Shown in pieces: positions 829-40,245 of a stretch of 64,000 nt of DNA. The notes below the pieces were generated by a model. That model saw nothing but the letters and a program-made list of their open reading frames with translations. It was not told the origin of the DNA and ran no database searches. Source of the DNA: a virus (Duplodnaviria > Heunggongvirae > Uroviricota > Caudoviricetes). Position numbers and translations under genes: made by a program. Each line of letters starts with the position of its first letter. The stretch's first letter is position 1. Location of the stretch: IMG/VR virus record IMGVR_UViG_3300028797_000103, positions 87,685 through 151,684 of that record; one strand, given 5' to 3'.

Positions 829-831
829 GAA

Positions 832-1227: not shown

Positions 1228-1259
1228 AGTAGTAAAGAATAATTAAAAATTTTTAAGAA

Positions 1260-2459
1260 ATGGCTAACGTAATTTCAAGTGTATCAAACAAGATTGTTGA
1301 CGAAAACGGTAAAATCTACAATTCCATTCGTCAGCTCGCAAAGGAACTCGGCGTTTCGAGAAAGAGAATCAGCCGCTGTCTTAAACGTGACAACTATGTA
1401 AAGATAAACGGAATGACATATGTCCTCGAAACCTTCGGGTTTGCAACCCCGATTGTAAAAGAACCAACACTGTTCGACGACGTAGAAACCGAAGTTCCTG
1501 CTGCACCAAGAGTTATCGAGGTTGTGAAGCCGAGAGAAGACGAGAAGGAATATCAGGAGTTCAAGAAGATGAAGGAGGACATCAAGAGTGTCAACGATCT
1601 TCCTGTAACTGATTACGATTTCCATCTTGCAAACCATAAAAATGGCACGAGATATTGTGTCGCTTTGTTCAGCGATGTTCATCTTGAACAGACAATCGAA
1701 AAGGAATCTGTTCTCGGAAAGAACGAATACAACATAGACATTGCGGAAAAGAGGGTTCGCAACTATTTCAACAATCTGGTTCTTTGTCTCAAAGACGACC
1801 GTGTTGAGAATCTCATCTTCGCTTGTCTCGGAGATATAATAAACGGTCTCATTCATGAGTCATACCTTGCATCGAACTCTATGATGCCAATGGATGCGGT
1901 TATAAAAGGACAGAGTCTAATTTACAGCGGTCTTAAGTTCATTCTTAAGAACACCAAAATCAAGAAGCTTCTTTTTGTTGGCGTTATCGGAAATCACTCC
2001 AGAACAACAAAGAAGGTTTGGAGTTCAGGTGCATACAAGATGAGCTACGAATATCTTATGTATAAGAACATTGAAAGCTTCTGCAAGGCAGAGGGTCTTC
2101 CAATCGAGTTTGTTATTCCTAACTCTGATAAGGCAATCATCAATATGGAAGACGGAAACGTGTTCCTGTTCGAGCACGGTGATGCTGTTCGCAGCACCGG
2201 ACAGGGTGTTTGCGGAATATATCCGGCACTTGGAAGATATCGTCTTAAGACTCATGAGAACTTCGGGCAGACCAAACTTTTCATCGGTCATTATCATCAG
2301 TGCTGCCAGATGAAGGGTGTTGTTGTTAACGGAAGTATCGTCGGACAGGATAACTATGCGCTCCGCAACGGGTTTGCATATGAACCACCGGCACAGATGT
2401 ACGAGGTCTATGACTCCAAGATTGGTCTCTTGAATACAAGACAAATCTACTGCGACTAA
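1260..2459 (+). CDS. calcineurin-like metallophosphoesterase with N-terminal HTH-like segment
   Basis: Phosphoesterase motifs DVHL, GDIING, GNHS, EHGD and GHYH are present. The N-terminus (LAKELGVSRKRISRCLKR) is HTH-like. Confidence 0.6.
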   Translation: MANVISSVSNKIVDENGKIYNSIRQLAKELGVSRKRISRCLKRDNYVKINGMTYVLETFGFATPIVKEPTLFDDVETEVPAAPRVIEVVKPREDEKEYQEFKKMKEDIKSVNDLPVTDYDFHLANHKNGTRYCVALFSDVHLEQTIEKESVLGKNEYNIDIAEKRVRNYFNNLVLCLKDDRVENLIFACLGDIINGLIHESYLASNSMMPMDAVIKGQSLIYSGLKFILKNTKIKKLLFVGVIGNHSRTTKKVWSSGAYKMSYEYLMYKNIESFCKAEGLPIEFVIPNSDKAIINMEDGNVFLFEHGDAVRSTGQGVCGIYPALGRYRLKTHENFGQTKLFIGHYHQCCQMKGVVVNGSIVGQDNYALRNGFAYEPPAQMYEVYDSKIGLLNTRQIYCD

Positions 2460-2460
2460 T

Positions 2461-3195
2461 ATGGGAATGAAAATAGCATTTATGAGCGATCTTCACGGGT
2501 CGCTCATAGACTTTAAAGAAAAGGTTGATCTTGTTTGTATAGCCGGTGACATCGTTCCGCTTGAAATACAGAACGATGTGTTCAAATCTATAGCTTGGTT
2601 TAGCGGAAAGTTTGTTCCTTGGGCTGAAGGACTGGATTGTGCTAAAGTTATATTCATAGGTGGAAATCACGACTTCTTTTTACAGAGAATTGTAAACCAA
2701 TATTTTTCTGGAAGAAACATTGACTATTCTTTATATGAAAAAGAAAGCGCGGCGGCTGATGTGATAAAGGATAAATTGATGCTTCCGAAGAAAATTGTTT
2801 ATCTTCAGGATACAGTTTATAACTATAACCACAAAAAGATTTATGGAACACCGTGGATTCCGGAATTGAGCAGATGGGCGTTTTACAAGTCAAGCGAAGA
2901 CCTGAAAGAAGTGTTTGAAAAAATACCGGAAGACGTTGACGTCCTATTAACGCATAGTCCTGGAAAATATGTAAATGACACTGGTGTAAGTTTGCAGGAT
3001 TATAGACTTCCTGAATATGGGTCACAAGAATTGAGCGAAGCTGTATTCAAAAAGAAACCGAAATATTGGTTTTGCGGACACGTTCATTCTGGAAATCACA
3101 TTATGACAGAATATGGAGCAACGACGGTAGCAAACGTAAGCATAAAGGATGAAAACTATAGAGTTAGTTACGTCCCGCTTATAATTGAAATTTAA
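2461..3195 (+). CDS. calcineurin-like metallophosphoesterase
   Basis: Motifs SDLHG, GDIV, GGNHDF, THSPG and GHVHSGNH are present. The start overlaps the previous stop by 1 nt. Confidence 0.6.
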   Translation: MGMKIAFMSDLHGSLIDFKEKVDLVCIAGDIVPLEIQNDVFKSIAWFSGKFVPWAEGLDCAKVIFIGGNHDFFLQRIVNQYFSGRNIDYSLYEKESAAADVIKDKLMLPKKIVYLQDTVYNYNHKKIYGTPWIPELSRWAFYKSSEDLKEVFEKIPEDVDVLLTHSPGKYVNDTGVSLQDYRLPEYGSQELSEAVFKKKPKYWFCGHVHSGNHIMTEYGATTVANVSIKDENYRVSYVPLIIEI

Positions 3196-3323: not shown

Positions 3324-5300
3324 TTATACTAATTTTGTCCAATCTATGGTTACTCCAAGCCCCTCCAAAACCTTTTGCAGAGAGTTCACCCGCGTCGTGG
3401 GATTAGTACCATCATAGCCGCCGACACCACAAATGTAAATCTCACCATTAGACGTAACTTCAAATGCATTCTTTCTATTTGTGCCAGATGTACCGATACC
3501 TATAGAATGACGTGTACTTGTGTTGGATTTATTGTATGAGCCTTCAGCATGTTCGGCTTCATTAGTAGTTCTTGTATGCACGCCTTCTGTATGAGAGCAC
3601 TGTCCATCTGCTTGTGTACCATTACCTTCTGCATGAGAGCACTGTCCATCTGCTTGTGTACCATTACCTTCTGCATGAGAGCACTGTCCATCTGCTTGTG
3701 TACCATTACCTTCTGCATGAGATGCAAATCTGGTTGCCTCTGTCTGATATCCTTCAGTATGAGATGATGCTCCACTTGCGGCTGTTTGATATCCTTCTGC
3801 ATGAGAATTATCACCACCTGCCGACGTGCCGTTTCCTTCAGCATGAGATGCAACACCAATTGCAGTAGTAGAGTAGCCTTCTGCATGTGCAGCTTGTGCA
3901 GATGCGGTTGTTCGTCCACCTTCTGAATGAGCTTGTATTGCACTCGCTATTGTACTATATCCTTCAGCATGACTTGCTCTCGCTAATGACTCAGAAGCCA
4001 CTCCCTCAGCATGACTTGCATTACCTTTTGCCAATGTTCCATTACCTTCAGCATGCGTAAACGCACCATCATTAGTGTTGGTGTGAATTGATTGTTTACT
4101 ACCTGTTCCAGCTCTTGTATTTGCACCTTCTGCGTGAGAAGTTACACCATCGGCTATAGTTCCAAGACCTTCTGCGTGTGATGCATATTGAGTTGCTTGC
4201 GTGCCTTTACCTTCAGCGTGTGATGAGTTACCGCTTGCAAGAGTTCCATTGCCCTCCGCGTGAGAAAAATATCCAGCCGTGTTTGTGTTATTTGGGTCTT
4301 TCTTCTCTCTGTTACCAGCTACTGTATTGATACCCTCAGCATGAGCTGCTTGACCAGATGCAATCGTGCCAAATCCTTCACTATGAGAAGAAATTGCACT
4401 GGCTGTTGTATTGTAACCTTCTGCATGGGATGCACGACCTAACGATTCAGAAGATATTCCCTCTGCATGGCTTGAATTACCTTTTGCTAAAGTGCCATTA
4501 CCTTCTGCGTGTGTGAATGTTCCTTCACTAGTATTGGTATGTGCTTCTTGTTTGCTACCTGTTCCAGCTCTTGTGTTTGCTCCTTCTGCATGGCTGGTGA
4601 TTCCACTGGCAATAGTGCTTAGTCCTTCAGCGTGAGCTGTGTATTGAGTGGCCTGTGTATCCCTTCCTTCAGTGTGCGAAGAATTACCACTTGCAAGAGT
4701 TCCGTTGCCTTCAGCATGAGAGAAGTCTCCGGGAGTGTTTGTGTTGTCGTGTTGTTTTTTATCTCCGTTGCCAGCTACTGTATTGATACCCTCAGCATGA
4801 GCTGCCACACCTTTAGCTAAAGTATTGTGACCTTCAGCGAAACTATTAACTCCTTCTGCTTTCGTATCTTCCCCAGTTGCTACGGCATTTTTTGCAGTGG
4901 CACTAGCCCCAGTATCTTTCTGCTGGACACTGTTATCACCGCTAGAACCTGTTTCAAATGGAGAAAATTGAAATTCTTTAGAAATGTCTACATAATCACT
5001 TTCTTGTGTTCCATCACCAGAATTGCACATATAAGTTTTATATATTCCGTCTCCTGTGTGGAATGTCAGTTTTATTCCGGCGTGTTTATGTATAACCGGA
5101 AGTTTTTCGATTGCTGTGGCTAGAGTGTATACGCTGGAATCAGTAGCCCCCGGATAAAGACGGTTTACATTGTATTCCGCTATATACTTGTCGAGAGTTT
5201 TTTCATTATCATCAACAACGGCAAAATGCTTTGTTCTTGGATATACGGAAGCGTCGTTATTTAACCTGTCCTTAAATTGTAGTATGTTGTTTTCGCTCAT
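3324..5300 (-). CDS. tail-fibre-like protein with tandem xHAEG(N/Y)xT repeats (paralog 1)
   Basis: 658 aa with about 35 SHAEG-type repeats. Its N-terminus and C-terminus (NAFEVTSNGEIYICGVGGYDG) are conserved with the ORFs at 17378-18994 and 21111-22013. Confidence 0.55.
   Translation of the reverse strand: MSENNILQFKDRLNNDASVYPRTKHFAVVDDNEKTLDKYIAEYNVNRLYPGATDSSVYTLATAIEKLPVIHKHAGIKLTFHTGDGIYKTYMCNSGDGTQESDYVDISKEFQFSPFETGSSGDNSVQQKDTGASATAKNAVATGEDTKAEGVNSFAEGHNTLAKGVAAHAEGINTVAGNGDKKQHDNTNTPGDFSHAEGNGTLASGNSSHTEGRDTQATQYTAHAEGLSTIASGITSHAEGANTRAGTGSKQEAHTNTSEGTFTHAEGNGTLAKGNSSHAEGISSESLGRASHAEGYNTTASAISSHSEGFGTIASGQAAHAEGINTVAGNREKKDPNNTNTAGYFSHAEGNGTLASGNSSHAEGKGTQATQYASHAEGLGTIADGVTSHAEGANTRAGTGSKQSIHTNTNDGAFTHAEGNGTLAKGNASHAEGVASESLARASHAEGYSTIASAIQAHSEGGRTTASAQAAHAEGYSTTAIGVASHAEGNGTSAGGDNSHAEGYQTAASGASSHTEGYQTEATRFASHAEGNGTQADGQCSHAEGNGTQADGQCSHAEGNGTQADGQCSHTEGVHTRTTNEAEHAEGSYNKSNTSTRHSIGIGTSGTNRKNAFEVTSNGEIYICGVGGYDGTNPTTRVNSLQKVLEGLGVTIDWTKLV
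3594..3722. repeat. three near-perfect 42-nt tandem DNA repeats inside the fibre gene
   Basis: The unit ...ctgtccatctgcttgtgtaccattaccttctgcatgagagca... occurs three times and encodes GNGTQADGQCSHAE three times. Confidence 0.8.
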
Positions 5301-5325
5301 TGTGTTTCAACTGTTTTTCTATTTA

Positions 5326-8300
5326 TTAGTACCAGTTCTGTTCGTATTGAACAGCTATTACATTGTTATTGCGTATTGAATCGTAGTTATCTGCATTAGT
5401 ACAGTTGTAGCAATATCCGCTTATGCCCTGTGACGATGAGTGGTCTATAGCTGAGAATGCAGCAGCCATATCAACTCTAGGCATGTTTCCATCAATCGTT
5501 GGACAGTCGTAGAACATTTTACCTGCGTATTTGAGTTTTCTATTTGTTGCGGAGCTTCCCGTTCTTAGGAACTGTTCGCTTACGCCTGTTATCTTTGTTC
5601 TTGAGAACGCACCGAATGCATTAACAAGTGATGTTAGTGAATTCTTGAACCAAGTGTTAGATATCGTTCCACCGAGACCTGGGTTGTAACAGAACATCTG
5701 CTGTATCGTTTCAAGTTTATACAACCCGTCGAATGTATTGTTTGATATAGGATAAGGTTGTGTCCATGTGTGGTTGTCAACGTTTGCTCTGAAACTATAT
5801 GTCAAACGGAACATAAACGATACATCAGCTACGGAAACTAGCTTTGAGAAGAATTCTGGGTGGACAAAGTAGTCAATGTTTTCGTATTTTGTTGGCTCGT
5901 TTAGTCCACAATCAAAGAACATTTCAGATATATTTGTTAATGTCGTGTATCTTCTGTCGCTCGTTTCTGTCCAGAACATATCCCATGGTATCTTTCCGGA
6001 AAGTTTGTTACAGTTTTTGAACATTGCTTTCGCCGTTGTCAATTTCACACACTCTGCAAGAAGACCGAGTTTTGGATTTTCAGGATCAATGTCTTCTGTT
6101 CCAACGTCTATACCAGTCATATTTTTACAGTTTTCGAACATGCTCGATGTGTTTATCAATGTACTTCTGCAAGAATCAAATAGTGTTGATTGCAATCTTC
6201 CAGTTATTCCTTCACAACCCTTAAAGCATGATGAAACGTTTTCCAATTTCTCACACCCGTCGAACACATCAAGTTCACTTGCATCTATATCCAAACTTGA
6301 ACAGCCGTTGAAGGCGTCGTACGCGTATACGAGTTTTGTCATTCCAGATAGAATGTCATTGCTAAATCCGGATATGCTAGTACAGCCTTTAAATAGTTCT
6401 GATGCATCTGTTATTTTTGTTTTTGAACCCTCAAAGAAATTTGGCATTACGCTGATGTTTAAACTTGTACATCCATTAAACAAACCCTTTACGTTGTTTA
6501 TGTTTGTGTGCGTACTGAACAAATCTTTCGTTACGGTTCCATCTTGTGTAGAGTAAGCAGTTAATGATGTACAATCTTTGAAAACTTGACTTACATTTTG
6601 AAGCAACGGCATTGTTTTAAATACATCAGGATTTATAAGTATAATTCCAACACAACCCTCAAACAATCCTCCTGAATTATATGATCCTCCTGTATAGGTC
6701 GACGTACTCTTATTTCCAATAGATGTAACTTTGCTTGCGCCAGCAAACAAATTTGCAGTTGGAACAAAAACAAGAGAGCTACAATTTGCAAACATTCCGC
6801 TCAAATTTGTAAGTTTGCTAAAGACTGTAGTTGTGTCTCCGGATGCTCTGAATATTGAGTTTTCCGTCAACGATTGTATTTTTGTTGATTTGAATGCGGC
6901 TGCTGCCGTCTCAAGTAAAGTGTTACTTGAGAAAAATCCTTCAGGAACGATTCCGGTTATTGATGTACAACCATTAAAAATACCGTCTATATTTTTTAGT
7001 TTTGTGTTACTTGCAAATATTTTTGCTATAACGTTGTCTGTTTTTGCTATAGTAATCTTTGTACATCCAGAGAACATTGCTGCTGCGTTTTCTAAGTCTG
7101 GGCAAGAATTAAATATTGTACTTGTTAAAGTGAAAACGAGATTCGTATCTCCACTGAACATCGCGTTCGCTGTTTTCAATTTTGGGAAGAACGTAAATAT
7201 GTTGGAAGGAATAGATGTTAATGTTGCACTGTTTCCACCAAATGCCGTACTAGCCGTTGTGCATTCTGACAACCCTGTAGACCCGCTTGAATTTTTAAAC
7301 GCGTTCGCATGAATCGATGTTATTCCAGCCCCCCAGAAACAGGATGACATCGAAGTAACTTTTTTACAATTTCCGAAAAAGTTTGCCGGTATAACCGTGT
7401 ATTCATCACCAGTTTTAGTCCCTTTCTTTGAATGACATAATGATGATATGTCTGTTAATGATTCTCCACAAGAATCAAGAAATCTTTTTATTTGAGCAAG
7501 AGGAACATCGTAACAAGAGTTGAATGCACTAGATAAGCTTGTACAATTTACAAAATTTAACACCAACCCGCTTGTGTCAGCCAACACATAACAATAAGCA
7601 AACATTGAGCTCGCGCTACCGTTACAAGTTAAGCTTCCAGAAACGCTTTGTAATTTGTTGCAGCTTCTGAATAAATTTGCGCAAGATCCTGTATAATTTA
7701 GATTAAGTATCTTTTCAATGTTGACGCAGTTATAGAAAGATAGAGATGTTAAAGATCCAAGGTTTAACATATCAACACCGTCGAATTCATTCGTATCGTA
7801 CGCAATGTTCTTTATGTTTGATTGTGACATTGAGAGCGTTCGTAGCGTATCTCCGATGTTGCTCGCGAACCTTATATTTTCTATAACTGAACCGGTTAAA
7901 ACAATTGTTTTAAGCCCGTCAATTGCACTAAGGTTTAGTGTTCTCAAACCGGCGCTTCTGTTATTATTAAAGTACAATTCTTCCAGAGATGAGCATCTGT
8001 CTATAACAAGGGTATCTATTCTTGAATTTGATTTCAATGAAATACTCTTTATAGAATCGCAGTCTGTTATATTAACAGTAACTATTGGAAGTTCATCAGC
8101 AACAATCGATGTCAATGAAGGACAGTTATCGATAACATAGCTTGAAATGTATTCACAACCGCTAACATCAACAGATGAAAGGAATTGACATGAACTCAAT
8201 CCTATACCAGTTATGTTTGAATTCTTTGCGCTAACTGTCTTGAGTGCTCCACCAACAGGGAACGCTATTGATGTGAGTTTTGTATCATCGAGATATACTT

Positions 8301-11300
8301 CCTTTAAGTTTTCGCAGTTAGAAAGGTTGAGCTGCGCACCAGACGCTTCCGTTCCCAAACGAGTGCATCCGTTGCAGTTCAAATATCTTAAGAATTTGTT
8401 CTTTAATAGGGATAGTGTTGTAAGTTTAACCGTTCCCGAAAGATCAAGTCTTGTCAATCTTGTTGCAGCACCAAGGATAAGTGATGACGGTTTTATTTCA
8501 GACAGGTTCTCAAACTCGCGTATTCCACCAGCACCGCTGATGAACATTTCCTTATTACCAGATGTTATTGGTATCTGGAAAAGAAGACCTTCCTTTATTT
8601 CCTGCGTATATGGGTCTCTATATCTTGAGTCTCGGCTGCAATATCCTTCAAGATCGGCTTCGTCCGTACCAACGGTTATTCTGACGTATTGTGGAGAATA
8701 TGTCTTAACACCAAGGAACACATATGTTCCTGTTGTTCCGGTAACGGCATCTGAACGAAAACCTATACTACCGTTCAACGAGTCCGTTTCGTTGTGGTAG
8801 TCGAACAATGTATCGCAATAAATGAGTCTGTTTTTCATCCAAGACTTGAACTTCTGAACGCGGTTTCCGTGCATACGAGAAATATATTCTCCGATATCTG
8901 ACAACTTATAGAATTTGGTTGTCATGTCTCTGTTGTAGTATGCTTCTCCTATAATATCAGAAGTATTCGCAAGATATTTTGCAGATATATTGTCTATTGA
9001 ATAAATTCCGTAATTTCTGATCTTTCCGTAAAGAGCATTGATTTCTGTTCTAAATGCAGTTGCAAATGCTATCCAGAATTTAGATGTTCTTGTGTTATAG
9101 CTCAAATATCTTTCCTTAGCGTTTGCCGCGATGTTATCGAAATATTTTCCAGCTATAGGAGTGTTGTTTATGTTCTTGAACGGGGAAAGGTCTTCTATCA
9201 GCTCAGCGTCTTCTTTTATTATTTCGAAACCTGTGTTATCCAATCCGGCTTGTGAGTCAAGGTCATATGGACGTGGTATCCAATGAAGCCCATCCCAAGT
9301 GTCCCACATAGAGTTCTTTCCGGCGTTGTCAACCTGACCGAACAACATCATCTGCAAGTAGTATATTGCGCAATATTCAAATATGAAATAATTAGAGAAT
9401 TCGTTCTTGAACGTTGTCAGGTTTTTGGATGCTTCAGAAACCCAGTCTATCATTCTTTTCAATCCCCAAGTTGAGTCTCCCCAGAACTCTTTTTCACCTT
9501 CTTCTATATCATCCCAGTCGTATCTCATTTCATAGTCTTGGGCGAAATATTCATACTCGTCCTTATAAGGAACTTCGTAATCTTCTTCTGCCAAGAGATA
9601 AAGATTGTTTGTCCCCTCACGCTTATATGGTGACTCTCCTTCGTAATTCTCAACGAATGGCGTATCTTGTCCAGCGTATGTTTCTATGAATGCGTCGAGG
9701 TCCATAGCTGGATAATTCTCGTCGACATATTGTTTTAGCGTAACCTCTGTTCCAAGATGAGAACGTTTCCATGCCTCATATTGCTCCTCGTGCGATGGAT
9801 ACCAATAATATTCTAACCAGAGGTTATATGCAGTCAAACAATAGTCGTCTCTATAAGCCGTAGCGCAGTAATCAGCAAAACTGTAGAAACATCCAGCTGA
9901 ATTTGATTTGTTTGCAACACCTTCAAAAGATTGCATTATGTTTGATACTCTCGGAGAAACTGGTCCCCATTCTTCAGGATCAAATTCACCGGCAGTCGTT
10001 TCATCAGCGGCTTCATAAACAGCGCCGTCATATGTACAACGCTCACCTTCTTCATATGATTTAGATGGATCATAATTTGGATATACTCCAGCAACAGCTC
10101 TTGGGTTATCAACTTGTATTTCTGTCTCTCCGTCTGTATCGTATTTTGCTGGAGCGTCAAATCCAAGAGATTTTCCGGATTTATCGATGTTGAACATATA
10201 TGTTCCAACATATACACCCTTATCAGTATCAGTGTCGTAATAATCAGCTTCACTTTCGTAGTATTTTACTATACAAGGGAACCCTTTGATTGCGTCGAAC
10301 ATTCCGTCTCGTCTAGCCGGGCTTCTGTGGTCATTTGCGGCTGTATATACTGTATGATCGCTGTTCCATCCTGTTGCGATGTCTCCAGTTTCAACAAGAG
10401 CATCAATCATATCATTATAGAACATACAGGTTGGAGTGTTGTTAAGGTGGGCGGCTTCCATGAAGTCACATTTTAAAGTAAATTTACTTTCCTTTTTCCA
10501 ACCGTCTTGAACTTTAACCTTATACTTATCTTTATAGTTCTCGTCTGTGTATAGTGTTATTTTATAGTTCTTTACTGGATATGCAAGCGAAGACGTTCCC
10601 TGTGTCTGAACGAAACAATGTGGCCACACAACACTATCTTCCCCAGGCTCTTTATATACTATTTTTGCGTGAGCATATCTTTTTTTCTGCTCAGCTTTAA
10701 TTTTCATCTTGTTCAGTTCTGAGAATGGAACAAGCTCTATATTATCTTTAATTTCTTTCGCCGTTCTTCCCTCGGTTGCGTTAATGTTAATGAACTCAAC
10801 TATTGGGAGAACATCGAGGTTTCTTCCGTTTATTCTCTCCTTTTCTTCATCTGTATAGTGAGAAACAATGTAATTGTTATTTACTTCAGATGCTCTAAGC
10901 GCTCTATTATAGAAACGAATAGCCTTTATTTCACACTGCCCGAAATAATCAATGTTGTTGTTTGTTGGATTTGTTGCAGAATTAAGAAGAACTGTAGGAG
11001 CAAAACTTTCGAATATCATTTCGTTCGTAAGTATTGCCGCTGTACACATTGAACCGTTTACGTATATCGTCATCAATCTCTCAGGAGCATAATCCTGAAC
11101 ATCTGAAACTTCGGTGTGAATTTGCTTATCGATGACAAATGTTGCGTGAATCCATTCGTCTTCCGAAACGTCATATTTTATTTGTGCTGATGTGTTACCA
11201 AGGCTCAAGGTGTCGTATGACGCTGAAAAACCGGCAGAGTTCGTTCCGTTTCCAATGTGCGACGTCATGACCTTGTTTTCTAGTTCACCTATACATCTTG

Positions 11301-12870: not shown

Positions 12871-12871
12871 A

Positions 12872-13642
12872 TTATTTTGTTGTTCCTGTTACTTTTATTG
12901 TGCATTGCATATCCAAAGGAATTCCAGAATCGAGAGTATATTCGAGAACTTTATAGGTTATGCCGTTTATAGATGTTGTTGCTAACTGTGTGAATAGTTC
13001 GGTCTGGTGTTCCTGTGTGACAACGGCAACAACGTCTGATAATGTTTGATCGGATGCAATTGCTATGTAATGATAAACTTTGTTGAAATTTGAGTTTACT
13101 GACAACTTATCTGTTGATGGTAATCCCATAACTCTGCTTCTTAAGTTCCCATCGTTTACAAATTTAGTATCAGATCCTCCGTAATAATATACGTTTACAA
13201 GTTTCTTTTCTGTTGGTGTAGGAGTCACGCCGCCCTCGTCTATTATCTTTTGAATCGCATCTACTTGATTTTTTAAAGCTACGAATTCTGGTCTCGTCAC
13301 ATAATTTGCCGGATCCAAGCTTTCAGGCGTTGCGTCTGGTATCGGAGATTCTTCTGAGCCTTCGCACAAGACAGCGTAATATCTTCTGTCTGCAACTTGC
13401 ATACTTAAAGAGTCGCAATGTATTTTCCAGCCAGCGTTTAGAGTAAAAGCTTTAACTAAGTTTCTTTCGTCGAGCTCAACTTCACAAGGAGCGAGTTTGT
13501 TACCAGAAACTGTTGATATAAACGCACTCCCATAGTATGTTACGATATTATATATAGAATAGCCGGAACCGTTGTTATAGCCGTCTACCCAATCTCCGAC
13601 ATAAACCGGAAGATTTCCCAAGTCTATTTGATTTACAGCCAT
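12872..13642 (-). CDS. hypothetical protein (structural gene neighbourhood)
   Basis: 256-aa ORF directly downstream of the giant gene on the same strand. Confidence 0.4.
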   Translation of the reverse strand: MAVNQIDLGNLPVYVGDWVDGYNNGSGYSIYNIVTYYGSAFISTVSGNKLAPCEVELDERNLVKAFTLNAGWKIHCDSLSMQVADRRYYAVLCEGSEESPIPDATPESLDPANYVTRPEFVALKNQVDAIQKIIDEGGVTPTPTEKKLVNVYYYGGSDTKFVNDGNLRSRVMGLPSTDKLSVNSNFNKVYHYIAIASDQTLSDVVAVVTQEHQTELFTQLATTSINGITYKVLEYTLDSGIPLDMQCTIKVTGTTK

Positions 13643-13643
13643 G

Positions 13644-14156
13644 TTATTGTGTTGTTATATATACATTTTTTTCTGTTATCTTTCCTCCGGTAATACCAGA
13701 TTTATCGTTGGTGTTTAAAAGAAGTTTTCCACTGTTTGATATTCCTCCGCACCTGTTGTCTTCAATGTGTAACGCTTCGTTTTCTTTTATGTCTGACTCA
13801 TCTCTAGACGATGCGTAGACTTTTCCGGTTAGTACATCGAAGTTTAATTTGAATTCGGTTCTATCAGATATTTGTTGCTGGTGTTCTTCTTGTTCGGACT
13901 CTTCTCGTTTTCGTTCTTCAACATATGCTTTTTCAACATACGTTAGTCCAACAGTATCTAGAAATATTTTTCTATTTACACTAACGTCGTATTTCCCCCA
14001 GTCTATCTGAGCTCCGGGATTTTTCCAAGCGTCTCCAACAATTTGCAAACCATCATCATTAAGATACTTGCTGGAATCCCAATCTACATCACTTGGATTT
14101 CCATTTACAATGTATCTTAACCCTCCAGTATTGAGAAACGTTGAAGCATCTTGCAT
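13644..14156 (-). CDS. hypothetical protein
   Basis: 170-aa ORF in the same operon-like run. Confidence 0.4.
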   Translation of the reverse strand: MQDASTFLNTGGLRYIVNGNPSDVDWDSSKYLNDDGLQIVGDAWKNPGAQIDWGKYDVSVNRKIFLDTVGLTYVEKAYVEERKREESEQEEHQQQISDRTEFKLNFDVLTGKVYASSRDESDIKENEALHIEDNRCGGISNSGKLLLNTNDKSGITGGKITEKNVYITTQ

Positions 14157-14175
14157 CAGTTAAATAAAGTTGTTT

Positions 14176-14961
14176 TTATTCAGATGGTTCTTCTTCTATT
14201 TCTGCTACAGGAAGTCTATCGTCTAATATCTGACAGATTCCATTAAATGTGCTTGAGTCTGCAACAAGCGTTTCTTTCAGTTCTGCAAGAGTGCTAGAAT
14301 CTGCAATAGCAACATCTTTCATTTCTGCAAGAGTGCTAGAGTCTGTCGCCAACGTCTCTTTTATCTCGGATAGCGTGCTTGAGTCTGCAACAGCAGCATC
14401 TTTCAGTTCTGAAAGCACACTTGAATCGGCAGCGAGGATTTCTTTTATCTCGGATAGCGTACTTGAGTCTGCAACAGCAGCATCTTTCATATCCGATAGA
14501 GATTGATTGATTCCCTCATAAATGCTTGAGTCAGATGCAAGTGTTTCCTTTAATTCAGAAACCTCATTAACAAGAGACTCCAGAACAGAAACTAGTGTTT
14601 TTCCACCAGAGATATCTTCTATCGCTTCATCTACGATTTTTATCGCATCTTTAAGAGAGATCTCTCCGTAAGTTTCACCGTTGAATTCAAAGTCTTTTAT
14701 TGTAGCCTGATCAAGAATGGTGTCGCTTGTGAGAAGGTTACTCGTGAATAGAACAGAACCGTTCATAGAACCAGTTCCCATCAAAGTGTAAACGTCTCTT
14801 GATGTTACAGACGGGTCGCTTTTAGCTGGATACCAGAAAGGAACAATTGCGCTCTCACCATAAGCAAGCTTCATGTTATAGATTATGCTTCTGGCAACGT
14901 CTATGCTGTCAACGATTTCTCTATATGCGTTGTATTTTAAGTTATCACATCTATTATCCAT
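14176..14961 (-). CDS. hypothetical protein with internal 13-aa tandem repeats (DSSTLSEIKETLA-like)
   Basis: About eight repeats of ADSSTLSE(I/L/M)K(D/E)xxA are visible in the translation. Confidence 0.45.
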   Translation of the reverse strand: MDNRCDNLKYNAYREIVDSIDVARSIIYNMKLAYGESAIVPFWYPAKSDPSVTSRDVYTLMGTGSMNGSVLFTSNLLTSDTILDQATIKDFEFNGETYGEISLKDAIKIVDEAIEDISGGKTLVSVLESLVNEVSELKETLASDSSIYEGINQSLSDMKDAAVADSSTLSEIKEILAADSSVLSELKDAAVADSSTLSEIKETLATDSSTLAEMKDVAIADSSTLAELKETLVADSSTFNGICQILDDRLPVAEIEEEPSE

Positions 14962-14980
14962 AGTATAATCTTAGTTGTTT

Positions 14981-15847
14981 TTAAGCTGTCAATTCGCTTG
15001 CAATTTCGTCTATGATGATATTGTCAAATGTAAGTACACCGTAGTCGAAGTATTTCTTGAAGTTTACGATTTCGCTAAGGTTGTATAGTGGGGCATATTC
15101 GTGAATATCATCTTCGTCTGGTTCTCCAAATATAATTCCATTCTCATCAAAGAATACGAGCGTTTCTTCTCCGGCATCTCCGTCTTCAATAGCCTTTTCT
15201 ATTGCACTCTTAATAAGTTCGGCGGCTTCCTTTGGTGAACTCAATGCGAAATCTTGTTCAACCGTTACGCTTTCGTCAAGTCCTTCGTCATCATAATCGT
15301 CTTCATCATCTGTTGATGATGTTTCGAGGTCGATTTCAATATTAACGAACGCTTTCTTAAAGGCTGGATCCCATATATCATTACCGCTCTCTGCGTTTCC
15401 AACGAGAATAACTCTCCACCCCGGAGCTACAAACAATTTGTCAGATGTACCAACAGCCATAGCAATAAGAGCTTTTGCTAGCTCTTTCTGCTCTATTGTT
15501 GTTGTTCTGATGCTAATAAGAAGTACGCCTTCGCTATCATCTTCTGCCGCGAGGTCGTCGCTGTCATAGATGTGAGTTGCGTCAGAAAGCAAATTGTCAA
15601 TAGTAGTGTTCCAACCGATTGAAACTAATCCTAATCCAACGCTTCCATATTTTTCGGTTACGAAATTTTCTATATAAGACGTGGTTCTGTTGCCAGACAT
15701 CTGCCATATAAACAAAGGAGTGGTTGTTTTCCCTTCGATATATGATGCCAATAATTTTTGGAATTTATCTTCTTTCTTGATGTATTTGAAGCTATCCAAA
15801 CGTTCGTCATCGAATGACTTTACAGCTGATTCAAAAATGCTTTTCAT
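14981..15847 (-). CDS. acidic hypothetical protein
   Basis: 288 aa with an Asp/Glu-rich C-terminal half. Confidence 0.4.
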   Translation of the reverse strand: MKSIFESAVKSFDDERLDSFKYIKKEDKFQKLLASYIEGKTTTPLFIWQMSGNRTTSYIENFVTEKYGSVGLGLVSIGWNTTIDNLLSDATHIYDSDDLAAEDDSEGVLLISIRTTTIEQKELAKALIAMAVGTSDKLFVAPGWRVILVGNAESGNDIWDPAFKKAFVNIEIDLETSSTDDEDDYDDEGLDESVTVEQDFALSSPKEAAELIKSAIEKAIEDGDAGEETLVFFDENGIIFGEPDEDDIHEYAPLYNLSEIVNFKKYFDYGVLTFDNIIIDEIASELTA

Positions 15848-15954
15848 TATTTTATTAAACTATAGTTTTCCTTTATCTATTTATTTTGAACTTTGTCTGG
15901 CATTTGTCCGAAGCGTAAGTTTTCAAAAATGTTTTTATATTACAAAGTTTTTCA

Positions 15955-15967
15955 GTATATTTGCAAA
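15955..15967 (+). promoter_or_regulatory. conserved promoter box gTATATTTGcaa (Bacteroides -7 TAnnTTTG type)
   Basis: Identical 13-mers recur upstream of many genes. This copy lies 23 nt upstream of the Dam start codon. Confidence 0.6.
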
Positions 15968-15989
15968 TGAAATTTACAACATTGATTAT

Positions 15990-16913
15990 ATGTCAAAACC
16001 TTTTCTAAAGTGGGCTGGTGGAAAAACGCAGCTGCTTCCGGAAATAACAGCAATAGTAGATTCAATGAGAGATTCATCTGAATCTTTTATATATGTCGAG
16101 CCTTTTGTTGGTGGAGGTTCAGTGCTTTTTAATCTTCTCGATAACTGTTCAAATTTAAAGTTCGCAATCATAAACGACATGAACAGAGATTTGATGAACT
16201 GTTACAGAATCATCGCAGACAATGACAAATACATACATCTAAAAAACAGGCTCCTTGAGATAGAAACTGAATACAACCATAAGACGTATGATGAAAAGAA
16301 ACAGATGTATTCCGACATTAGGGACGAATATAACAAAAGAAATTCGAGCGATATTGTTGATCCTGTTGAAATTTCTGCAATGTTTATATTCCTTAATAAG
16401 TGTGGATTCAACGGAATGTATAGGGAGAACAAGTCTGGAGAATATAACATTCCTTGGGGACAGAAAGATTACATAAACCTTTTCGATGAATATAATTTTG
16501 ACAGATGTCACGTCCTCCTGAACGAAAAGGTTGTAATTCTTGATGGAGATTATTCTAAAACGGGTGTAGCATTCGACTTAGCAAGGGTTAACGGAGCAGA
16601 CCTCATCTTTTACATTGACCCTCCATATAGACCAGTGTCGTCGTCGAGTTCTTTTACGAGTTATGTTTCAGGTGGATTTGGAGACAAAGAACAGGAAGAA
16701 TTGAAACTGTTTTGTGACAATATAGATTCATTCGGTGGAAAGTTTATAGTCAGCAATTCAAAATCGGAGGACTTTTTCGATAAACTTTATTCCGGTTATC
16801 ACATTGATGTTGTTGAGGCTAGACGAAACATAAATTCGATAGGTAGTAAGAGAGGTAAGGTTGAAGAGATCCTTATATATAACGAGGAAAAGAAAAGCAA
16901 CGCGTTGTTCTAA
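15990..16913 (+). CDS. dam: DNA adenine methyltransferase (Dam-like, GATC family)
   Basis: MSKPFLKWAGGKTQLL at the N-terminus, FVGGGSV (SAM-binding) and DPPY. The start was chosen at 15990, downstream of the promoter box, rather than at the longer track ORF. Confidence 0.75.
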   Translation: MSKPFLKWAGGKTQLLPEITAIVDSMRDSSESFIYVEPFVGGGSVLFNLLDNCSNLKFAIINDMNRDLMNCYRIIADNDKYIHLKNRLLEIETEYNHKTYDEKKQMYSDIRDEYNKRNSSDIVDPVEISAMFIFLNKCGFNGMYRENKSGEYNIPWGQKDYINLFDEYNFDRCHVLLNEKVVILDGDYSKTGVAFDLARVNGADLIFYIDPPYRPVSSSSSFTSYVSGGFGDKEQEELKLFCDNIDSFGGKFIVSNSKSEDFFDKLYSGYHIDVVEARRNINSIGSKRGKVEEILIYNEEKKSNALF

Positions 16914-17353
16914 TGGCAGATACAAAGGCAAAGAAACTGAAGGGTCAAAAGAAAGAAGCCCCGGACTCAAACAAAATAGATGAGAATCCGCTATTGAGGG
17001 TTGACAACAGGGTTGATTTTGAAATAGAAACCGGGAATCTTCTTCAAGACCCCGGTAAATTGATATATAATGGATTTGATAACTTTGATTTAAAGAAAGA
17101 AAAGGATCACTTCGACCTCAGTAAACTTTCTGATGATACGAAAATAGTTGTAGTTTTAAGGTATTACGAATATCTAAGTATAGCTACATTCAAATTCTCG
17201 TTCGTTGTCCCTATATTGCAATCTGGATTAAGCATGAGGGATTGCTTCGAAATGATAAAACATTCGTTGAGGAACAAACTTCTATTAAACGCTCCTTCAT
17301 TCGATACTATATTTGAACCAGAGTTTCAGTATATAGGTAAAATAAAATATTGA
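16913..17353 (+). CDS. hypothetical protein
   Basis: 146-aa ORF translationally coupled to dam. Confidence 0.4.
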   Translation: MADTKAKKLKGQKKEAPDSNKIDENPLLRVDNRVDFEIETGNLLQDPGKLIYNGFDNFDLKKEKDHFDLSKLSDDTKIVVVLRYYEYLSIATFKFSFVVPILQSGLSMRDCFEMIKHSLRNKLLLNAPSFDTIFEPEFQYIGKIKY

Positions 17354-17380
17354 GTGTCAACCTGACACTCAATATTTTTA
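17345..17380. terminator. bidirectional terminator / 16-bp perfect inverted repeat
   Basis: aaaatattgagtgtca-acc-tgacactcaatatttt lies between convergent genes. Confidence 0.6.
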
Positions 17381-18994
17381 GAACGGTTCAAATTCAAGTC
17401 TAATTCCTGTTCCACCGGATCCGCCATAATAAATGTCTAAATAATACAAGTTTTCTGTATTATCTTCTCTTGCAAACGTAAAATGGGCGTTTTCGTTTAC
17501 AGTGTCAACACCATATTCCCTACATTGGTATAAATTATGAGTTATAGTTCCATCACTTGTTGTAAAAAGATCAAAGGTTGCGTTTGAAAAATAATTAACA
17601 ATATCGTTGTAAATTCCATCTAGGTCTGACTGCTGTTTTATACTTTGACCTAAAGAATTCATAATGTTGGTATATAAAGTATATATTATATTTTGACCGT
17701 CGTGGTCGTATATATGAACAACAGCACTGTCTAATCCGAATCTTCCGTTATACAAATCCAAATTAAGGGTGATTGGTGTGCCCCATCCGGTGTAAACATT
17801 TAGCGATGTTACTATTCTTCTTGGCCCGGTTCCACCAACAAGAGAGTTTAAATATGTGGCTAAGTCGGTTTTTTGTGATAATGCCGATGCTGTCCCTTCC
17901 GTTCCATCGACACCTCCTATTCCCGGAATGTAATGTTTTCCATCAGCTGTAATGACATGAGCATTTTTTCTTACACTCAATGATGAGCCTATGCCAACAG
18001 TATGGCGAGTCACGTTTGGTATCGATATATTAAAGGATCCTTCAGCGTGTTCGTAATCGTTGAGTGCTTTTGTGAAATTTCCTTCTGCGTGGCTTTGTGT
18101 GCCAATAGCTTCCCCACCAGCGCCCTCAACGTGAGAATAGTTACCAATCGCAAGAGAATTAAAACCTTCAGCGTGAGCCGCGTTTCCCTTAGCAAGAGTA
18201 TACTTGTTGTTGGCTGTTTCCCAGTTTAATATTATGGATGCATCCGGACTACCAGCTATTGCATCTGACACCTTTGCTTTTGAACGTCCTTCAGTGTGAG
18301 AATTTGCACCAAAAGCATATGTTTGGAGTCCTTCTGCGTGGGATTCTAAACCATATGCCGTGTTTGTGCTGCCTTCAGAATGGCTTTGTGACCCCCATGC
18401 GATATTGTTTGCGCCCTCAACGTGCGAGTAGTCTCCGAGGGAAAGTCCGTTGAATCCTTCTGCGTGGCTTGAATGACCTTTAGCCATAGCGAATTTTGTC
18501 GAATTCCAATCCGATACAACACCAGACGCATCTTTTGCTGCTGTTGTTTCAGATGCCTTTGACTGTGACCGCCCCTCTATATGTGAATTCGCTCCGAATG
18601 CATATGTTTTATAACCTTCTGCATGAGAGTTTTCTCCCTCAGATGTTGCATTATCACCCTCTGCGTGCGAATCATCACCAACGGCATACGTGTAATTTCC
18701 TTCAGCATGGGAATTGTTTCCTTCGGCTACGGTGTCAAGACCTTCTGAATGAGAGGAATCACCGGTAGCATGTGTTGTGTCTCCTTCAGCATGAGATGCA
18801 AACCCACCGGAATCTGTATCAGATCCTTCTGAAACAGATAGTTCCCCGTGCGCATCATTCGAACCATGTTTTTGTTGAGCGCTGTCCGTTCCGCGTCCCT
18901 TTTCAAAAACAACATCAGCTTTGCGTGCAAATAAATTATCTACGTTATAAAAGAAACGTGATAATGCGGCTAAAAGTGTTTCTTTTGTTATCAT
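17378..18994 (-). CDS. tail-fibre-like protein with xHAEG repeats (paralog 2)
   Basis: SHAEG/SHVEG repeats. The C-terminus (RKNAHVITADGKHYIPGIGGVDG) is conserved with the 3324-5300 product. Confidence 0.5.
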   Translation of the reverse strand: MITKETLLAALSRFFYNVDNLFARKADVVFEKGRGTDSAQQKHGSNDAHGELSVSEGSDTDSGGFASHAEGDTTHATGDSSHSEGLDTVAEGNNSHAEGNYTYAVGDDSHAEGDNATSEGENSHAEGYKTYAFGANSHIEGRSQSKASETTAAKDASGVVSDWNSTKFAMAKGHSSHAEGFNGLSLGDYSHVEGANNIAWGSQSHSEGSTNTAYGLESHAEGLQTYAFGANSHTEGRSKAKVSDAIAGSPDASIILNWETANNKYTLAKGNAAHAEGFNSLAIGNYSHVEGAGGEAIGTQSHAEGNFTKALNDYEHAEGSFNISIPNVTRHTVGIGSSLSVRKNAHVITADGKHYIPGIGGVDGTEGTASALSQKTDLATYLNSLVGGTGPRRIVTSLNVYTGWGTPITLNLDLYNGRFGLDSAVVHIYDHDGQNIIYTLYTNIMNSLGQSIKQQSDLDGIYNDIVNYFSNATFDLFTTSDGTITHNLYQCREYGVDTVNENAHFTFAREDNTENLYYLDIYYGGSGGTGIRLEFEPF

Positions 18995-18995
18995 A

Positions 18996-19829
18996 TTATA
19001 TTAAGCTTATTGCGCTTTTATAGTTTTCGTTTATCAAAACGTTGTCATCTTTTGTTAACATATTTGATATTTTGTTTATAACAGGAATTGTCCATTTTGA
19101 TTTTGAATGAAAGTGTGCAAATCCGATTTGTTCGTCACAAAAATATCTTATGTTTTTATCGTCTGTCGGATATTTATAGTTCGTTGCTTTTTGTTCTGCC
19201 ACAAAATCCGATCTATATCCATATTTATCAACAAGAGACGGAAGAAATGACTGTTCAAGCAAGAAATCAATCGTACATCTTATGTTTTTATTGCTATATA
19301 TGTCAATCGCTTCAAAATAATTGTCAATAAACTCTTTTTTGAGCGATTCGTTGTTAAAACCAATTACGCCAACACAATATGGATGCATCGATAAATCAAT
19401 TTCCCTCATTCTAGACGGGGTCCCGTTTTCGATTAAGATTTTTCTCTCTTTAGAATATCTTACAATCTCATCGTGTCTCATTTGGACCAAAACATCCCAC
19501 CCGTCTTTTGGACATATACATGGTTTGTCTATGATGATGTCATAATCAAGATGAATTGTTCCAAGCTCCTCGTTTCTTAGTGCAAAATATTTTATTGCGG
19601 CAAACATTTCTGGATTTACCTTGTCTGGAATATCAAGAACGACGACATCATCGTAAGGAAACCCTTTTACTATTTTTGAACCAAGCGCGTCTGTATACAG
19701 AACAAGATCATATCCTTGTTTTTTTATTGATTTTGCAGACGCATACATCATTTTCATCGTTAGATACAAATGAGATTTGTTCATTGGTTTTGTCCAAAAC
19801 GTTTGTATTATTTTATTCGTCTCGTTCAT
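18996..19829 (-). CDS. hypothetical protein (possible glycosyltransferase-like)
   Basis: 277 aa with a DYD motif. It lies between fibre paralogs next to a methyltransferase. Confidence 0.3.
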   Translation of the reverse strand: MNETNKIIQTFWTKPMNKSHLYLTMKMMYASAKSIKKQGYDLVLYTDALGSKIVKGFPYDDVVVLDIPDKVNPEMFAAIKYFALRNEELGTIHLDYDIIIDKPCICPKDGWDVLVQMRHDEIVRYSKERKILIENGTPSRMREIDLSMHPYCVGVIGFNNESLKKEFIDNYFEAIDIYSNKNIRCTIDFLLEQSFLPSLVDKYGYRSDFVAEQKATNYKYPTDDKNIRYFCDEQIGFAHFHSKSKWTIPVINKISNMLTKDDNVLINENYKSAISLI

Positions 19830-20341
19830 TGTTCATCACATTTGATATAATATCCGTATAAATTGTTTCCGTATAGAAGTTTTAGTTTCGGGTATCTATC
19901 GGCTACAACATCTTTCGTCAAGTCGTTTTGTATGTGTATTTCATGAACATTTTGGTTTCCTGCTCCACTGCTTAATAGATAAGGGACGGCTACAATAAGA
20001 TTTTTACATCTATCATATGCATAATCAATAACTTTTTGAGCATCTTGAACTGTCATATGTTCAATCACATCGCCGAATATAATCAAATCATAAAACGAAT
20101 ATTCAAAATTTATGATATCAACATTAAAGCAACGTCTATATTTTTCTAAGAGATTGTAATAATATATGTTAGACTCATATATCTCTACCGCGTCAATGTT
20201 TTTATACCATTTACCTAGAAGATTGTAATATGTTCCGCTTCCAGCACCAACGTCTAAAATTTCTGAATCTTTTTTAAAATTCTTATAAATCCAAGACGCT
20301 ACATTTGGCTTAAAGAAATTGTATGAGGATGCTCTATCCAC
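19826..20341 (-). CDS. class I SAM-dependent methyltransferase
   Basis: Motif I ILDVGAGSG and motif post-II IIFGDVIEH are present. Confidence 0.6.
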   Translation of the reverse strand: MDRASSYNFFKPNVASWIYKNFKKDSEILDVGAGSGTYYNLLGKWYKNIDAVEIYESNIYYYNLLEKYRRCFNVDIINFEYSFYDLIIFGDVIEHMTVQDAQKVIDYAYDRCKNLIVAVPYLLSSGAGNQNVHEIHIQNDLTKDVVADRYPKLKLLYGNNLYGYYIKCDEQ

Positions 20342-21093
20342 TATATTTCGTATTTTGATTTTTTAGTATATAGTCCATCCATAAGAGTATATAGTCCACT
20401 TTTTAAATCGAATGAAGCCGTACTAAAAACGTTGCTGTATTTTGGGTTTGATTTCCACCACTCGGATGCTTTGTTTATTCGTACATCTTCAACAAATTCT
20501 GGTGAACACAATCCATTTAAAAACGCATAGTTGTTTATAAGAACAAACGCTTCAAACGGATAAAAGTTTTTCATGTTTTCGTCTATTATTTGACGACATC
20601 CATCTATCGCGTCTCTTGATATTCTCATATTTCGATGAAGCGTAAAATGAAATGTCGGGAGACCAAGTTCATCGAGACGATTTTTACAATCAACCAGCCA
20701 TTTTGTATATTCGTTCATTTTTGGAGTTTTGACCTCAGGTAAAAATGGTGAGTTTGTGTACTTCACATAATATGGATATTCGTTAAAATCAACATCCTTT
20801 GTGTAAAAGTGGTCATCCATTGAAACAAGGAATTCAGAACCAATGTCAGAATTATCGACAGCGTATAAGAGTTTATTTGCTATATTCTGTGCTTTTTGTG
20901 TTGGATGGATGGTATCTTTATTTATATCATCGCAAGGAATTTTTATTACTTCATCGGACAACCATTGCGGACATTCGCCACATACATAAACTCGATCTAC
21001 CCCAATCCCATACTTATCAATCGACCGTAAACCCCAACGCAACTCCATGTTGTCACATTTAGAATCCTTTCCAACTATATATAAAATATCCAT
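20341..21093 (-). CDS. hypothetical protein (possible sugar/polysaccharide-modifying enzyme)
   Basis: 250-aa ORF that ends in TAG. Confidence 0.3.
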   Translation of the reverse strand: MDILYIVGKDSKCDNMELRWGLRSIDKYGIGVDRVYVCGECPQWLSDEVIKIPCDDINKDTIHPTQKAQNIANKLLYAVDNSDIGSEFLVSMDDHFYTKDVDFNEYPYYVKYTNSPFLPEVKTPKMNEYTKWLVDCKNRLDELGLPTFHFTLHRNMRISRDAIDGCRQIIDENMKNFYPFEAFVLINNYAFLNGLCSPEFVEDVRINKASEWWKSNPKYSNVFSTASFDLKSGLYTLMDGLYTKKSKYEI

Positions 21094-21110
21094 TTTGTTG
21101 TTTTGTTACT

Positions 21111-22013
21111 TTAAAGGTTTGTTGATAAATTTGAATCAAGTGCGCTGCCGCTTTCAGATCCTCCTCCTCCACCACCGCCGCTGAACAGTGCATCTATCTC
21201 CGCCGTCGATACTTGTTGATCTTCTAGCATATCTTGAAGCGTATGTGCGCCGCTTCCTTGATTTTTTCCATTATAATTTCCAACACCAATGAGATATGCG
21301 TCACCACTTTGCATTATTTCAAATGCATTCGTTCTGTCATCGTTTGATGTTCCTATACCAATAGAGTAAAGTGTCTTTCCTGCTGGAACAGAAGATGTGT
21401 GCGTTTGATTATATTTTCCTTGAGCTCGTTCATAGTCGTTTGATGTTTTTGTCCCCAATCCAGACACAAAACTTCCTCTTGTTGAGGCGTTGCTGCTTTC
21501 TCCAAGAGATATGCTTCCATATGCCCCAGCTACAGAACCAGTTGCCCTTGCTAATTTTACAGAATTTATGCTGCTCCCTGTTGTTATTGGCGAGACTCTG
21601 GCGTAGTTGAGAGTTCTAATTATGTCTATCCAGTTTTTCTTTAAAGGTGGGACTTCGGCAGATGAAATATCATTGCCCATAGCGTCAATTTGCGTTCCAC
21701 ACACCCATATATGAGACTCGACAAGATCTGATGATGATAAAAATGAAAGTGTGAGTCCTCTTTTGTTTCTGTATGCATTGGGGACCCTCGCAATCGCCCC
21801 GGAAAGCGTATATATCGTTGTTGGACCGGCAGATGGATCCAGACTGTTTACGTTATATTCATATAAATAGTCGTCCAATTCTTTATTATTTTCATCTATA
21901 ACCGAATAGTGTCTTGTATACGGATAAACCGGAGTGTCGTTTCGTGCCCTGTCTTTAAACTGAACAACTCTTTTGTCGATATCGCTCATTTTTACATTGT
22001 TTATTTTATACAT
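21111..22013 (-). CDS. tail-fibre-like protein, short paralog (paralog 3)
   Basis: The N-terminal ~100 aa align with the 3324-5300 product (VQFKDRARND.PVYP.TRH..VIDENNKELD.Y..EYNVN.L). The C-terminus NAFEIMQSGDAYLIGVGNYNG is also shared. Confidence 0.5.
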   Translation of the reverse strand: MYKINNVKMSDIDKRVVQFKDRARNDTPVYPYTRHYSVIDENNKELDDYLYEYNVNSLDPSAGPTTIYTLSGAIARVPNAYRNKRGLTLSFLSSSDLVESHIWVCGTQIDAMGNDISSAEVPPLKKNWIDIIRTLNYARVSPITTGSSINSVKLARATGSVAGAYGSISLGESSNASTRGSFVSGLGTKTSNDYERAQGKYNQTHTSSVPAGKTLYSIGIGTSNDDRTNAFEIMQSGDAYLIGVGNYNGKNQGSGAHTLQDMLEDQQVSTAEIDALFSGGGGGGGSESGSALDSNLSTNL

Positions 22014-40238: not shown

Positions 40239-40245
40239 CAATAAA

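Follow-up and report, generated by a model that had tools for sequence, protein, structure and literature searches.

Candidate modular fibre proteins of the YadA-head beta-roll type in a putative distant relative of the Lak megaphages

Introduction

In mosaic tail fibres of phages, such as the host-range cassettes of the T7 gp17 type and of the T4/T-even gp37/gp38 type, the N-terminus is kept and the distal part is exchangeable. Three proteins that may follow a similar plan, here termed P1, P2 and P3, are encoded in a stretch of 64,000 nucleotides (nt) of viral DNA (IMG/VR record IMGVR_UViG_3300028797_000103, positions 87,685 to 151,684), which is referred to as the window and to which all coordinates refer. 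The proteins were analyzed for their fold, their modular architecture, their variation between genomes and their genomic context. They are probably modular virion fibre or adhesin proteins of the YadA-head beta-roll kind.

The closest described fold ('LbR_YadA-like') is found in the YadA-like heads of BpaC (7o23), YadA (1p9h), BoaA (3s6l), UspA1 (3ntn/3pr7), EibD (2xqh) and CbpF (9gh4). YadA-like domains are also encoded by phages. A structural protein with a YadA domain was detected in virions of cyanophage S-SZBM1 by liquid chromatography-mass spectrometry and was called common in other phages (PMC9146016), and in a pelagiphage tail fibre a YadA-like domain lies in the hypervariable, under-recruiting C-terminal, distal part (PMC3909814). 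A phage beta-roll fibre with a described structure was not found in the literature, and the string 'SHAEG' occurred in full text only as part of surnames.

P1-P3 resemble the YadA-domain proteins of S-SZBM1 (gp54), Syn19, P-HM1 and phiEco32, the pelagiphage fibres and the proteins of phages immuto and P8625, which are likewise phage-encoded YadA-head beta-rolls and show 42-44% direct similarity to the arrays of the window. In contrast to these proteins, the window proteins have a different and lineage-restricted N-terminal anchor, occur as three paralogs in one huge-phage genome and lack an intramolecular chaperone domain, and P2 carries an orphan tip domain.

Results and discussion

Fold of the repeat arrays

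The HAEG repeat that dominates P1 and P2 was not recognized as a named domain in an earlier note on this DNA. It does have a name, as it belongs to YadA_head (PF05658, formerly Hep_Hag). P2 matches the Pfam model with 39.2 bits (gathering threshold 25), P0003, an ortholog of P1, with 29.0 bits and relatives with 52-81 bits; P3 gave no match to this model. Sequence searches of the PDB retrieved the heads of the trimeric autotransporter adhesins (TAAs) BpaC, YadA, BoaA and UspA1. In AlphaFold2 monomer models strands recur every 14 residues, with predicted local distance difference test (pLDDT) scores of 85-97 for arrays and C-terminal module overall (P2 array 85-93, P2 C-module 93-97, P1 C-module 90-97). 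When P2 was compared with the PDB by Foldseek, the top ten matches were all TAA heads, the best being BpaC (E=4e-9). As modelled, the array is a left-handed parallel beta-roll that is superimposable on the solved YadA-like heads. The initial guess of a beta-helix thus came close, but that of a collagen-like fibre was wrong.

Both P1 and P2 show a 14-residue period with glycine corners and small residues alternating inward, and the layer consensus of the family is G1 x x S4 H5 A6 E7 G8 x x T11 x A13 x. Exact HAEG motifs occur 22 times in P1 and nine times in P2, compared with 0.04 and 0.02 expected from shuffled sequences. HxEG motifs number 27 and 15, respectively, and are spaced by exactly 14 residues except at insertions, where four spacings of 27 residues are found in P1 and spacings of 39 and 41 residues in P2. 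The insertions of P1 have low pLDDT. The repeats had been ascribed to all three proteins, which holds for the arrays of P1 and P2 but not for P3, where HxEG motifs are absent and about four degenerate layers lie between the N- and C-modules. Assuming the rise of 4.8 A per layer of BpaC (PMC9543794), the rods would be ~14-15 nm long in P1 (~30 layers), ~8 nm in P2 (~17 layers) and ~2 nm in P3 (~4 layers).

Nearly every layer of P1 and P2 contains an invariant histidine and glutamate where YadA has Val/Ile and BpaC Thr/Asn/Ser. In YadA and BpaC the core is made up of layer positions 5 and 7. Alignment with BpaC places S-H-A-E-G on positions 4-8, and thus His and Glu in the core; alignment with YadA disagrees and places HAEG on the other, outward-facing half-repeat. 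His and Glu are near-constant across the P1 and P2 layers, whereas positions 12 and 14 have an entropy of ~3.0-3.3 bits. This contrast in conservation, together with the BpaC alignment, favours the core register. That the HAEG subtype is a distinct beta-roll with His and Glu at core positions 5 and 7 is nevertheless a tentative and rather doubtful proposal. If it were true, the trimer core would be a continuous His/Glu ladder of ~27 layers replacing hydrophobic Val/Ile, perhaps stabilised by pairing of His and Glu between chains or by metal binding, and sensitivity to pH or metals would be possible. No solved structure of a HAEG-type protein was found by PDB sequence searches.

Modular architecture of P1, P2 and P3

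The three open reading frames (ORFs) are located as described in the earlier note, all on the minus strand and intact under the standard code (Table 1). TAA is the stop codon of all three, and each start is preceded by an in-frame stop at a distance of 6-9 nt. Because of these stops and the tight packing under the standard code the ORF boundaries stand, and a merging or splitting of P1-P3 by stop-codon recoding was rejected on the same grounds.

An N-terminal module of ~100 amino acids (aa) had been proposed as common to all three proteins. It is shared by P1 and P3 (34-40% identity over ~115 aa in BLASTP and tblastn; invariant residues QFKDR..VYP..EYNVN..YTL..AI..P), but the N-terminus of P2 is unrelated and contains a predicted helix at aa 4-23. 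Relatives of the N-module were not found in IMG/VR with either a single sequence or a profile. Among metagenome contigs a single sequence retrieved none and a profile one weak locus. No sequence relative was found in the PDB; matches to IsdH (E >=0.17) were judged to be due to chance.

The proposed C-terminal module is present in all three proteins, with the consensus GIG(T/S)S..R.NA(F/H).(V/I)...G..Y..G.G..(D/N)G, but it is internal in P2, where 166 aa follow. In P1 the 27th layer (EHAEG, aa 583-587) opens the C-module part, and the cap layers ERAQGKYN of P3 and EHAEGSYN of P1 correspond to each other. The array is closed by the C-module, whereas in TAAs it is closed by a neck. Five close variants of the P2-type C-module were found in searches. 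A resemblance of the C-module to SAKe6BE, a designed Kelch protein, was judged to be due to chance, reflecting a likeness in the motif GGYDGT. The distal domain of P2 has no homologs among 5.8 billion proteins and no confident model (pLDDT <50). Further copies of any P1, P2 or P3 module do not occur in the window.

The tail of P3 (aa 263-300, window 21114-21227) contains the stretch ...STAEIDALFSGGGGGGGSESGS..., which recurs nearly verbatim at the C-terminus of P0125 (...SNAEIDALFDGGGGGGSGSGS), a family member of unrelated length. This likeness suggests a conserved short C-terminal motif. The glycine run in the P3 tail was also considered as a slippage tract, which was rejected as its codons are mixed.

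Table 1. Features of the P1, P2 and P3 genes and of their surroundings (window coordinates).
Feature	Position	Strand	Description
P1, 658 aa	3324-5300	-	N-anchor module, ~30-layer YadA-like beta-roll (predicted), C-module, short tail
P1 C-module, aa 583-630	3411-3554	-	last cap layer EHAEGSYN and HSIGIGTS..RKNAFEV..NGEIYICGVGGYDG beta-hairpin unit
P1 HxEG array, aa 167-582	3555-4802	-	26 of 27 14-aa layers; four 13-aa loop insertions
Three 42-nt units in P1	3597-3722	-	encode SHAEGNGTQADGQC three times, aa 527-568
Older higher-order duplication in P1, 456-nt (152-aa) block	3877-4632	-	3877-4176 versus 4333-4632, 73% nt identity
P1 N-module, aa 1-118	4947-5300	-	common to P3, kept in ortholog P0003; proposed virion-attachment anchor
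LamG and LRR protein, 2,514 aa	5326-12870	-	25 nt upstream of P1, co-oriented
Terminator-like hairpin	17344-17378	-	16-bp stem; starts at last base of P2 stop (17378-17380), extends downstream
P2, 538 aa	17378-18994	-	N-terminal helix (predicted), 15 HxEG layers, C-module, orphan distal domain
P2 distal domain, aa 373-538 (166 aa)	17381-17878	-	candidate receptor-binding tip
P2 C-module, aa 315-372	17879-18052	-	RKNAHVI..DGKHYIPGIGGVDG variant
P2 HxEG array, aa 67-314	18053-18796	-	14 layers, the 15th opens the C-module; two insertions of 25-27 aa
Three enzyme-like genes between P3 and P2	18996-21093	-	Stealth_CR2-like, SAM-dependent methyltransferase, DUF6734
P3, 300 aa	21111-22013	-	N-anchor module, ~4 degenerate non-HAEG layers, C-module, Gly-rich tail; minimal family member
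P3 cap layer ERAQGKYN and C-module, aa 191-262	21228-21443	-	from sequence comparison with P1 and P2
P3 N-module, aa 1-145	21579-22013	-	paralogous to P1 N-module

Diversification within and between genomes

Close relatives of the window differ in the distal part of P1. A syntenic contig from another sample (L004) shares 96.65% nt identity with the window over positions 14277-4933, a span that runs from the upstream genes to ~365 nt (~121 codons) into P1. Beyond approximately codon 121 only repeat-level similarity (65-74%) is left, with a different array and a different tip. P0003, the positional ortholog of P1, has the same 118-aa anchor, but its array differs and an additional distal domain is present. 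In P0155 the same anchor type is combined with a short array and a C-module, and the distal domain is unrelated. On a more distant contig (L006), the flanking phosphoesterase gene is just 69% identical to that of the window, but a 470-nt block of P1 (3877-4345) is shared at 84.5% identity. That this block is closer than the flanking gene indicates an exchange of repeat blocks.

P1 thus has a conserved N-terminal part and a variable distal part among close relatives, a combination that is the classical signature of receptor-binding fibres. Like in the mosaic fibres of the T7 and T4 types, the N-terminal ~120 aa are kept (~97% at the nt level) while the distal part is replaced between near-identical genomes, and more distant genomes have repeat blocks in common with P1. 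Unlike in those fibres, the predicted fold of P1 is a beta-roll and not a triple beta-helix or a coiled coil.

Variation is also recorded within P1 itself. The three perfect 42-nt tandem repeats that had been noticed in the gene are indeed 100% identical, compared with a between-layer median of 52%, and positions 3583-3722 were resolved by Tandem Repeats Finder into 3.3 copies at 98%. This triplication is a recent tandem expansion. An older duplication of a larger block is also visible (Table 1), and layer pairs of P1 that are 152 aa apart are 83-93% identical at the protein level. Two independent short-read (Logan) contigs from related samples (L009 and L010) have flanking genes identical to those of the window, and both end at ~3620, inside the perfect array, so that the 42-nt copy number of three rests on the window's own assembly. 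In a collection of 5.8 billion proteins P3 is present but full-length P1 and P2 are missing; for P1 this is because the perfect array breaks short-read assemblies. Taken with the exchanges seen in L004, L006 and P0155, the triplication and the 456-nt duplication substantiate the earlier description of the proteins as modular and rapidly diversifying.

Family distribution and phage homologs

At least 7,964 proteins match P1 at E <1e-5. Additional domains, namely Peptidase_S74, Peptidase_G2, Phage_tail_C ('tail tip') or Mtd_N, are present in many of them, and all four are accessories of phage tail fibres. Homologs among the tail fibre or structural proteins of isolated phages were identified by tblastn, namely the 'tail spike protein' of Flavobacterium phage immuto and the 'tail fiber protein' of Verrucomicrobia phage P8625; a tblastn search of the phages with P3 gave no match. 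Among the predicted viral structures in BFVD, matches are already labelled 'Trimeric autotransporter adhesin YadA-like head domain-containing protein', 'LbR_YadA-like' or 'YadA-like protein', and in UniProt viral proteins of this fold carry the label 'YadA-like head domain-containing'.

The C-module, which is covered by no Pfam model, matched 1,733 cluster representatives in an exhaustive search, and in nearly all of these hits aa ~155-270 of P3 were the best-matching stretch. Long proteins often contain the module 2-5 times. It is preceded by an HxEG-type layer in 165 of 189 occurrences in the C-module search set and in 41 of 47 in the set of P1 matches (~87%), and the last copy is followed by a median of 145 residues in the relatives. 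Because of its multiple copies, the preceding layer and the trailing residues, the C-module is best described as a reusable cap or connector that is not strictly terminal.

Proposed function and alternatives

In the mechanism proposed here, one 14-residue unit G-x-x-S-H-A-E-G-x-x-T-x-A-x forms one beta-roll layer. As in all YadA-like heads solved so far, three chains would be packed together as a rigid rod. The C-module, consisting of the cap layer and the beta-hairpin unit GIGTS..RKNAFEV..G..Y..G.GG.DG, closes the array. The N-terminal parts are conjectured to anchor the trimers to the virion. With one type of anchor and very different rod lengths, P1 and P3 would share or compete for the same kind of docking site, and P2 would be attached via its different, helical N-terminus. 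Host contact could be made by the variable layer surface positions 2, 3, 9, 10, 12 and 14 and by the loop insertions, in P2 also by the orphan 166-aa distal domain. Length and specificity might change by gain or loss of 42-nt layers through slippage, by duplication of larger blocks and by recombination at conserved SHAEG-coding segments, with replacement of everything distal to the anchor.

A receptor-binding fibre family had been suspected from the start. Modular paralogs, a beta-solenoid rod and homologs annotated as tail fibre or spike agree with this view; virion incorporation and receptor binding of P1-P3 are what we infer from homology and from the pattern of variation. Several observations weigh against the assignment as virion fibres. 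P1 alone scores only 19.5 bits with YadA_head, which is below the Pfam gathering threshold of 25. The N-module of P1, the presumed anchor, has a pLDDT of 33-64 and no characterised relative, and P1-P3 lack the C-terminal intramolecular chaperone domains that are found in many relatives. In the window there is no gene for capsid, portal, terminase, baseplate or tape measure protein, so that linkage to a structural module is weak, and P2 and P3 bracket enzyme-like genes instead of tail genes.

The best sequence and fold matches of P1-P3 are bacterial TAA heads, and weak NCBIfam matches to Ata, EmaA and BimA were obtained, as would be expected if the proteins were TAAs or lysogenic-conversion adhesins located on the outer membrane of the infected cell instead of the virion. 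This is very improbable. With 20-27 bits the NCBIfam scores fall well short of the cut-offs (600-3000), Pfam detects neither a YadA_anchor beta-barrel nor a coiled-coil stalk in P1-P3, and the anchor is absent in NCBIfam as well. A hydrophobic N-terminus is also missing by the crude test of the maximum 12-residue Kyte-Doolittle mean within the first ~40 residues (0.10, 1.22 and -0.28), and relatives bear phage tail-fibre domains. In contrast to TAAs, P1-P3 are phage-encoded and lack signal peptide, stalk and membrane anchor; without signal peptide and anchor they are not autotransporters, and this alternative is already largely refuted. Even less credible is an explanation in which the arrays have no defined fold and are artefacts of low complexity or of assembly, and in which the paralogy reflects composition bias. 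In its favour, A, G, T and S make up ~49% of P1, and the perfect repeat interrupts short-read assemblies. This explanation is already refuted for the arrays as a whole, and only the perfect 42-nt copy number is assembly-dependent.

A more serious competitor, though still an unlikely one, is that P1-P3 are beta-roll proteins outside the virion, which serve in decoration, aggregation or mucus or glycan binding after release at lysis, or act as enzymes or scaffolds together with their glycan-type neighbours. Huge phages encode many accessory surface-interaction proteins, the genes of P2 and P3 bracket the Stealth_CR2-like, methyltransferase and DUF6734 genes, and tail-assembly genes are not adjacent to P2 and P3. 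However, that genomes 97% identical keep the N-terminus and exchange the distal part is the signature of host-range proteins anchored to the virion. Moreover, isolated phages have homologs whose annotation is tail fibre or spike, a YadA-domain protein is present in cyanophage virions, and P1 adjoins a homolog of a tail-fibre gene. Assignment of P1-P3 to virion fibres is preferred.

Genomic context

The sole database match of P3 is P3 itself, carried by a contig of 328,867 bp, and the phage collection contains no DNA that is nearly identical to the window. Phage-type replication and nucleotide-metabolism genes are encoded in the window, and its DNA polymerase (58821-60353) is closest to those of Prevotella Lak megaphages (36% aa identity over 98% of the length). 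Elsewhere in the window Pfam marks DnaJ-like, ClpP and radical-SAM proteins, an RNA ligase and a dUTPase/acetyltransferase fusion. Judged from these genes, from the tRNAs described below and from the ~329-kb contig, the source is a huge phage that is only distantly related to the Prevotella Lak megaphages and to other described lineages.

An array of 31 tRNA genes covering most amino acids extends over positions 34642-61487. One of them (40166-40239) has a CTA anticodon, is of the amber-suppressor type and was designated 'Pyl' by ARAGORN. Only two of 47 long ORFs in the window are terminated by TAG. Stage-specific recoding of TAG occurs in Lak-like and crAss-like phages. The CTA-anticodon tRNA and the rarity of TAG may be a sign of such recoding; the three fibre genes are not affected.

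P1 adjoins the giant homolog of a tail fibre, while P2 and P3 lie beside enzyme-like genes. The 2,514-aa protein encoded upstream of P1 gives weak Pfam matches to Laminin_G_3 and leucine-rich repeat (LRR) families and comprises a LamG-like domain at aa 547-664 as well as BspA-type leucine-rich repeats in a long C-terminal stretch. Its residues 94-914 are similar to gp353 of Bacillus phage G. Residues 424-911 are homologous to a 'Tail fibre protein' of the Hankyphage-like Bacteroides phage jmh72_hp, which is targeted by a diversity-generating retroelement (DGR) and whose gene adjoins those of the tape measure and the baseplate hub. By these similarities the neighbour of P1 is probably a tail fibre or adhesin as well. 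The gene is kept at 96.7% in L004, whereas the adjoining P1 has been swapped. In the same operon-like block as P1, the ORF 14176-14961 (minus strand) encodes a 261-aa protein with a weak coiled-coil match and contains a second 42/84-nt tandem repeat (14249-14490; 5.8 copies at 68%, or 2.4 copies of an 84-nt unit at 81%). It may be another protein of adjustable length.

In the enzyme-like trio between P3 and P2, the Stealth_CR2-like gene shows a weak match to a polysaccharide phosphotransferase family. The trio might modify glycans, either of the host surface or of the fibres. The hairpin 3' of P2 lies between P2 and the convergent ORF 16913-17353, in a gap of 24 nt, and is probably a bidirectional terminator. 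Matches to sigma-70-type promoters were not in excess over the expectation from shuffled sequences.

Implications

The HAEG subtype and the unnamed C-module are very abundant in the databases searched, yet they are represented by neither a solved structure nor a dedicated family model. The comparison of the window with L004 provides a clear example, from a single pair of genomes, of the replacement of a tail-fibre cassette with a defined breakpoint ~121 codons into the gene. P1-P3 extend a known class of phage structural proteins and leave the current view of phage adsorption unchanged; they provide three candidate host-recognition proteins of a huge, gut-type phage that has not been cultured and that is related to the Lak megaphages.

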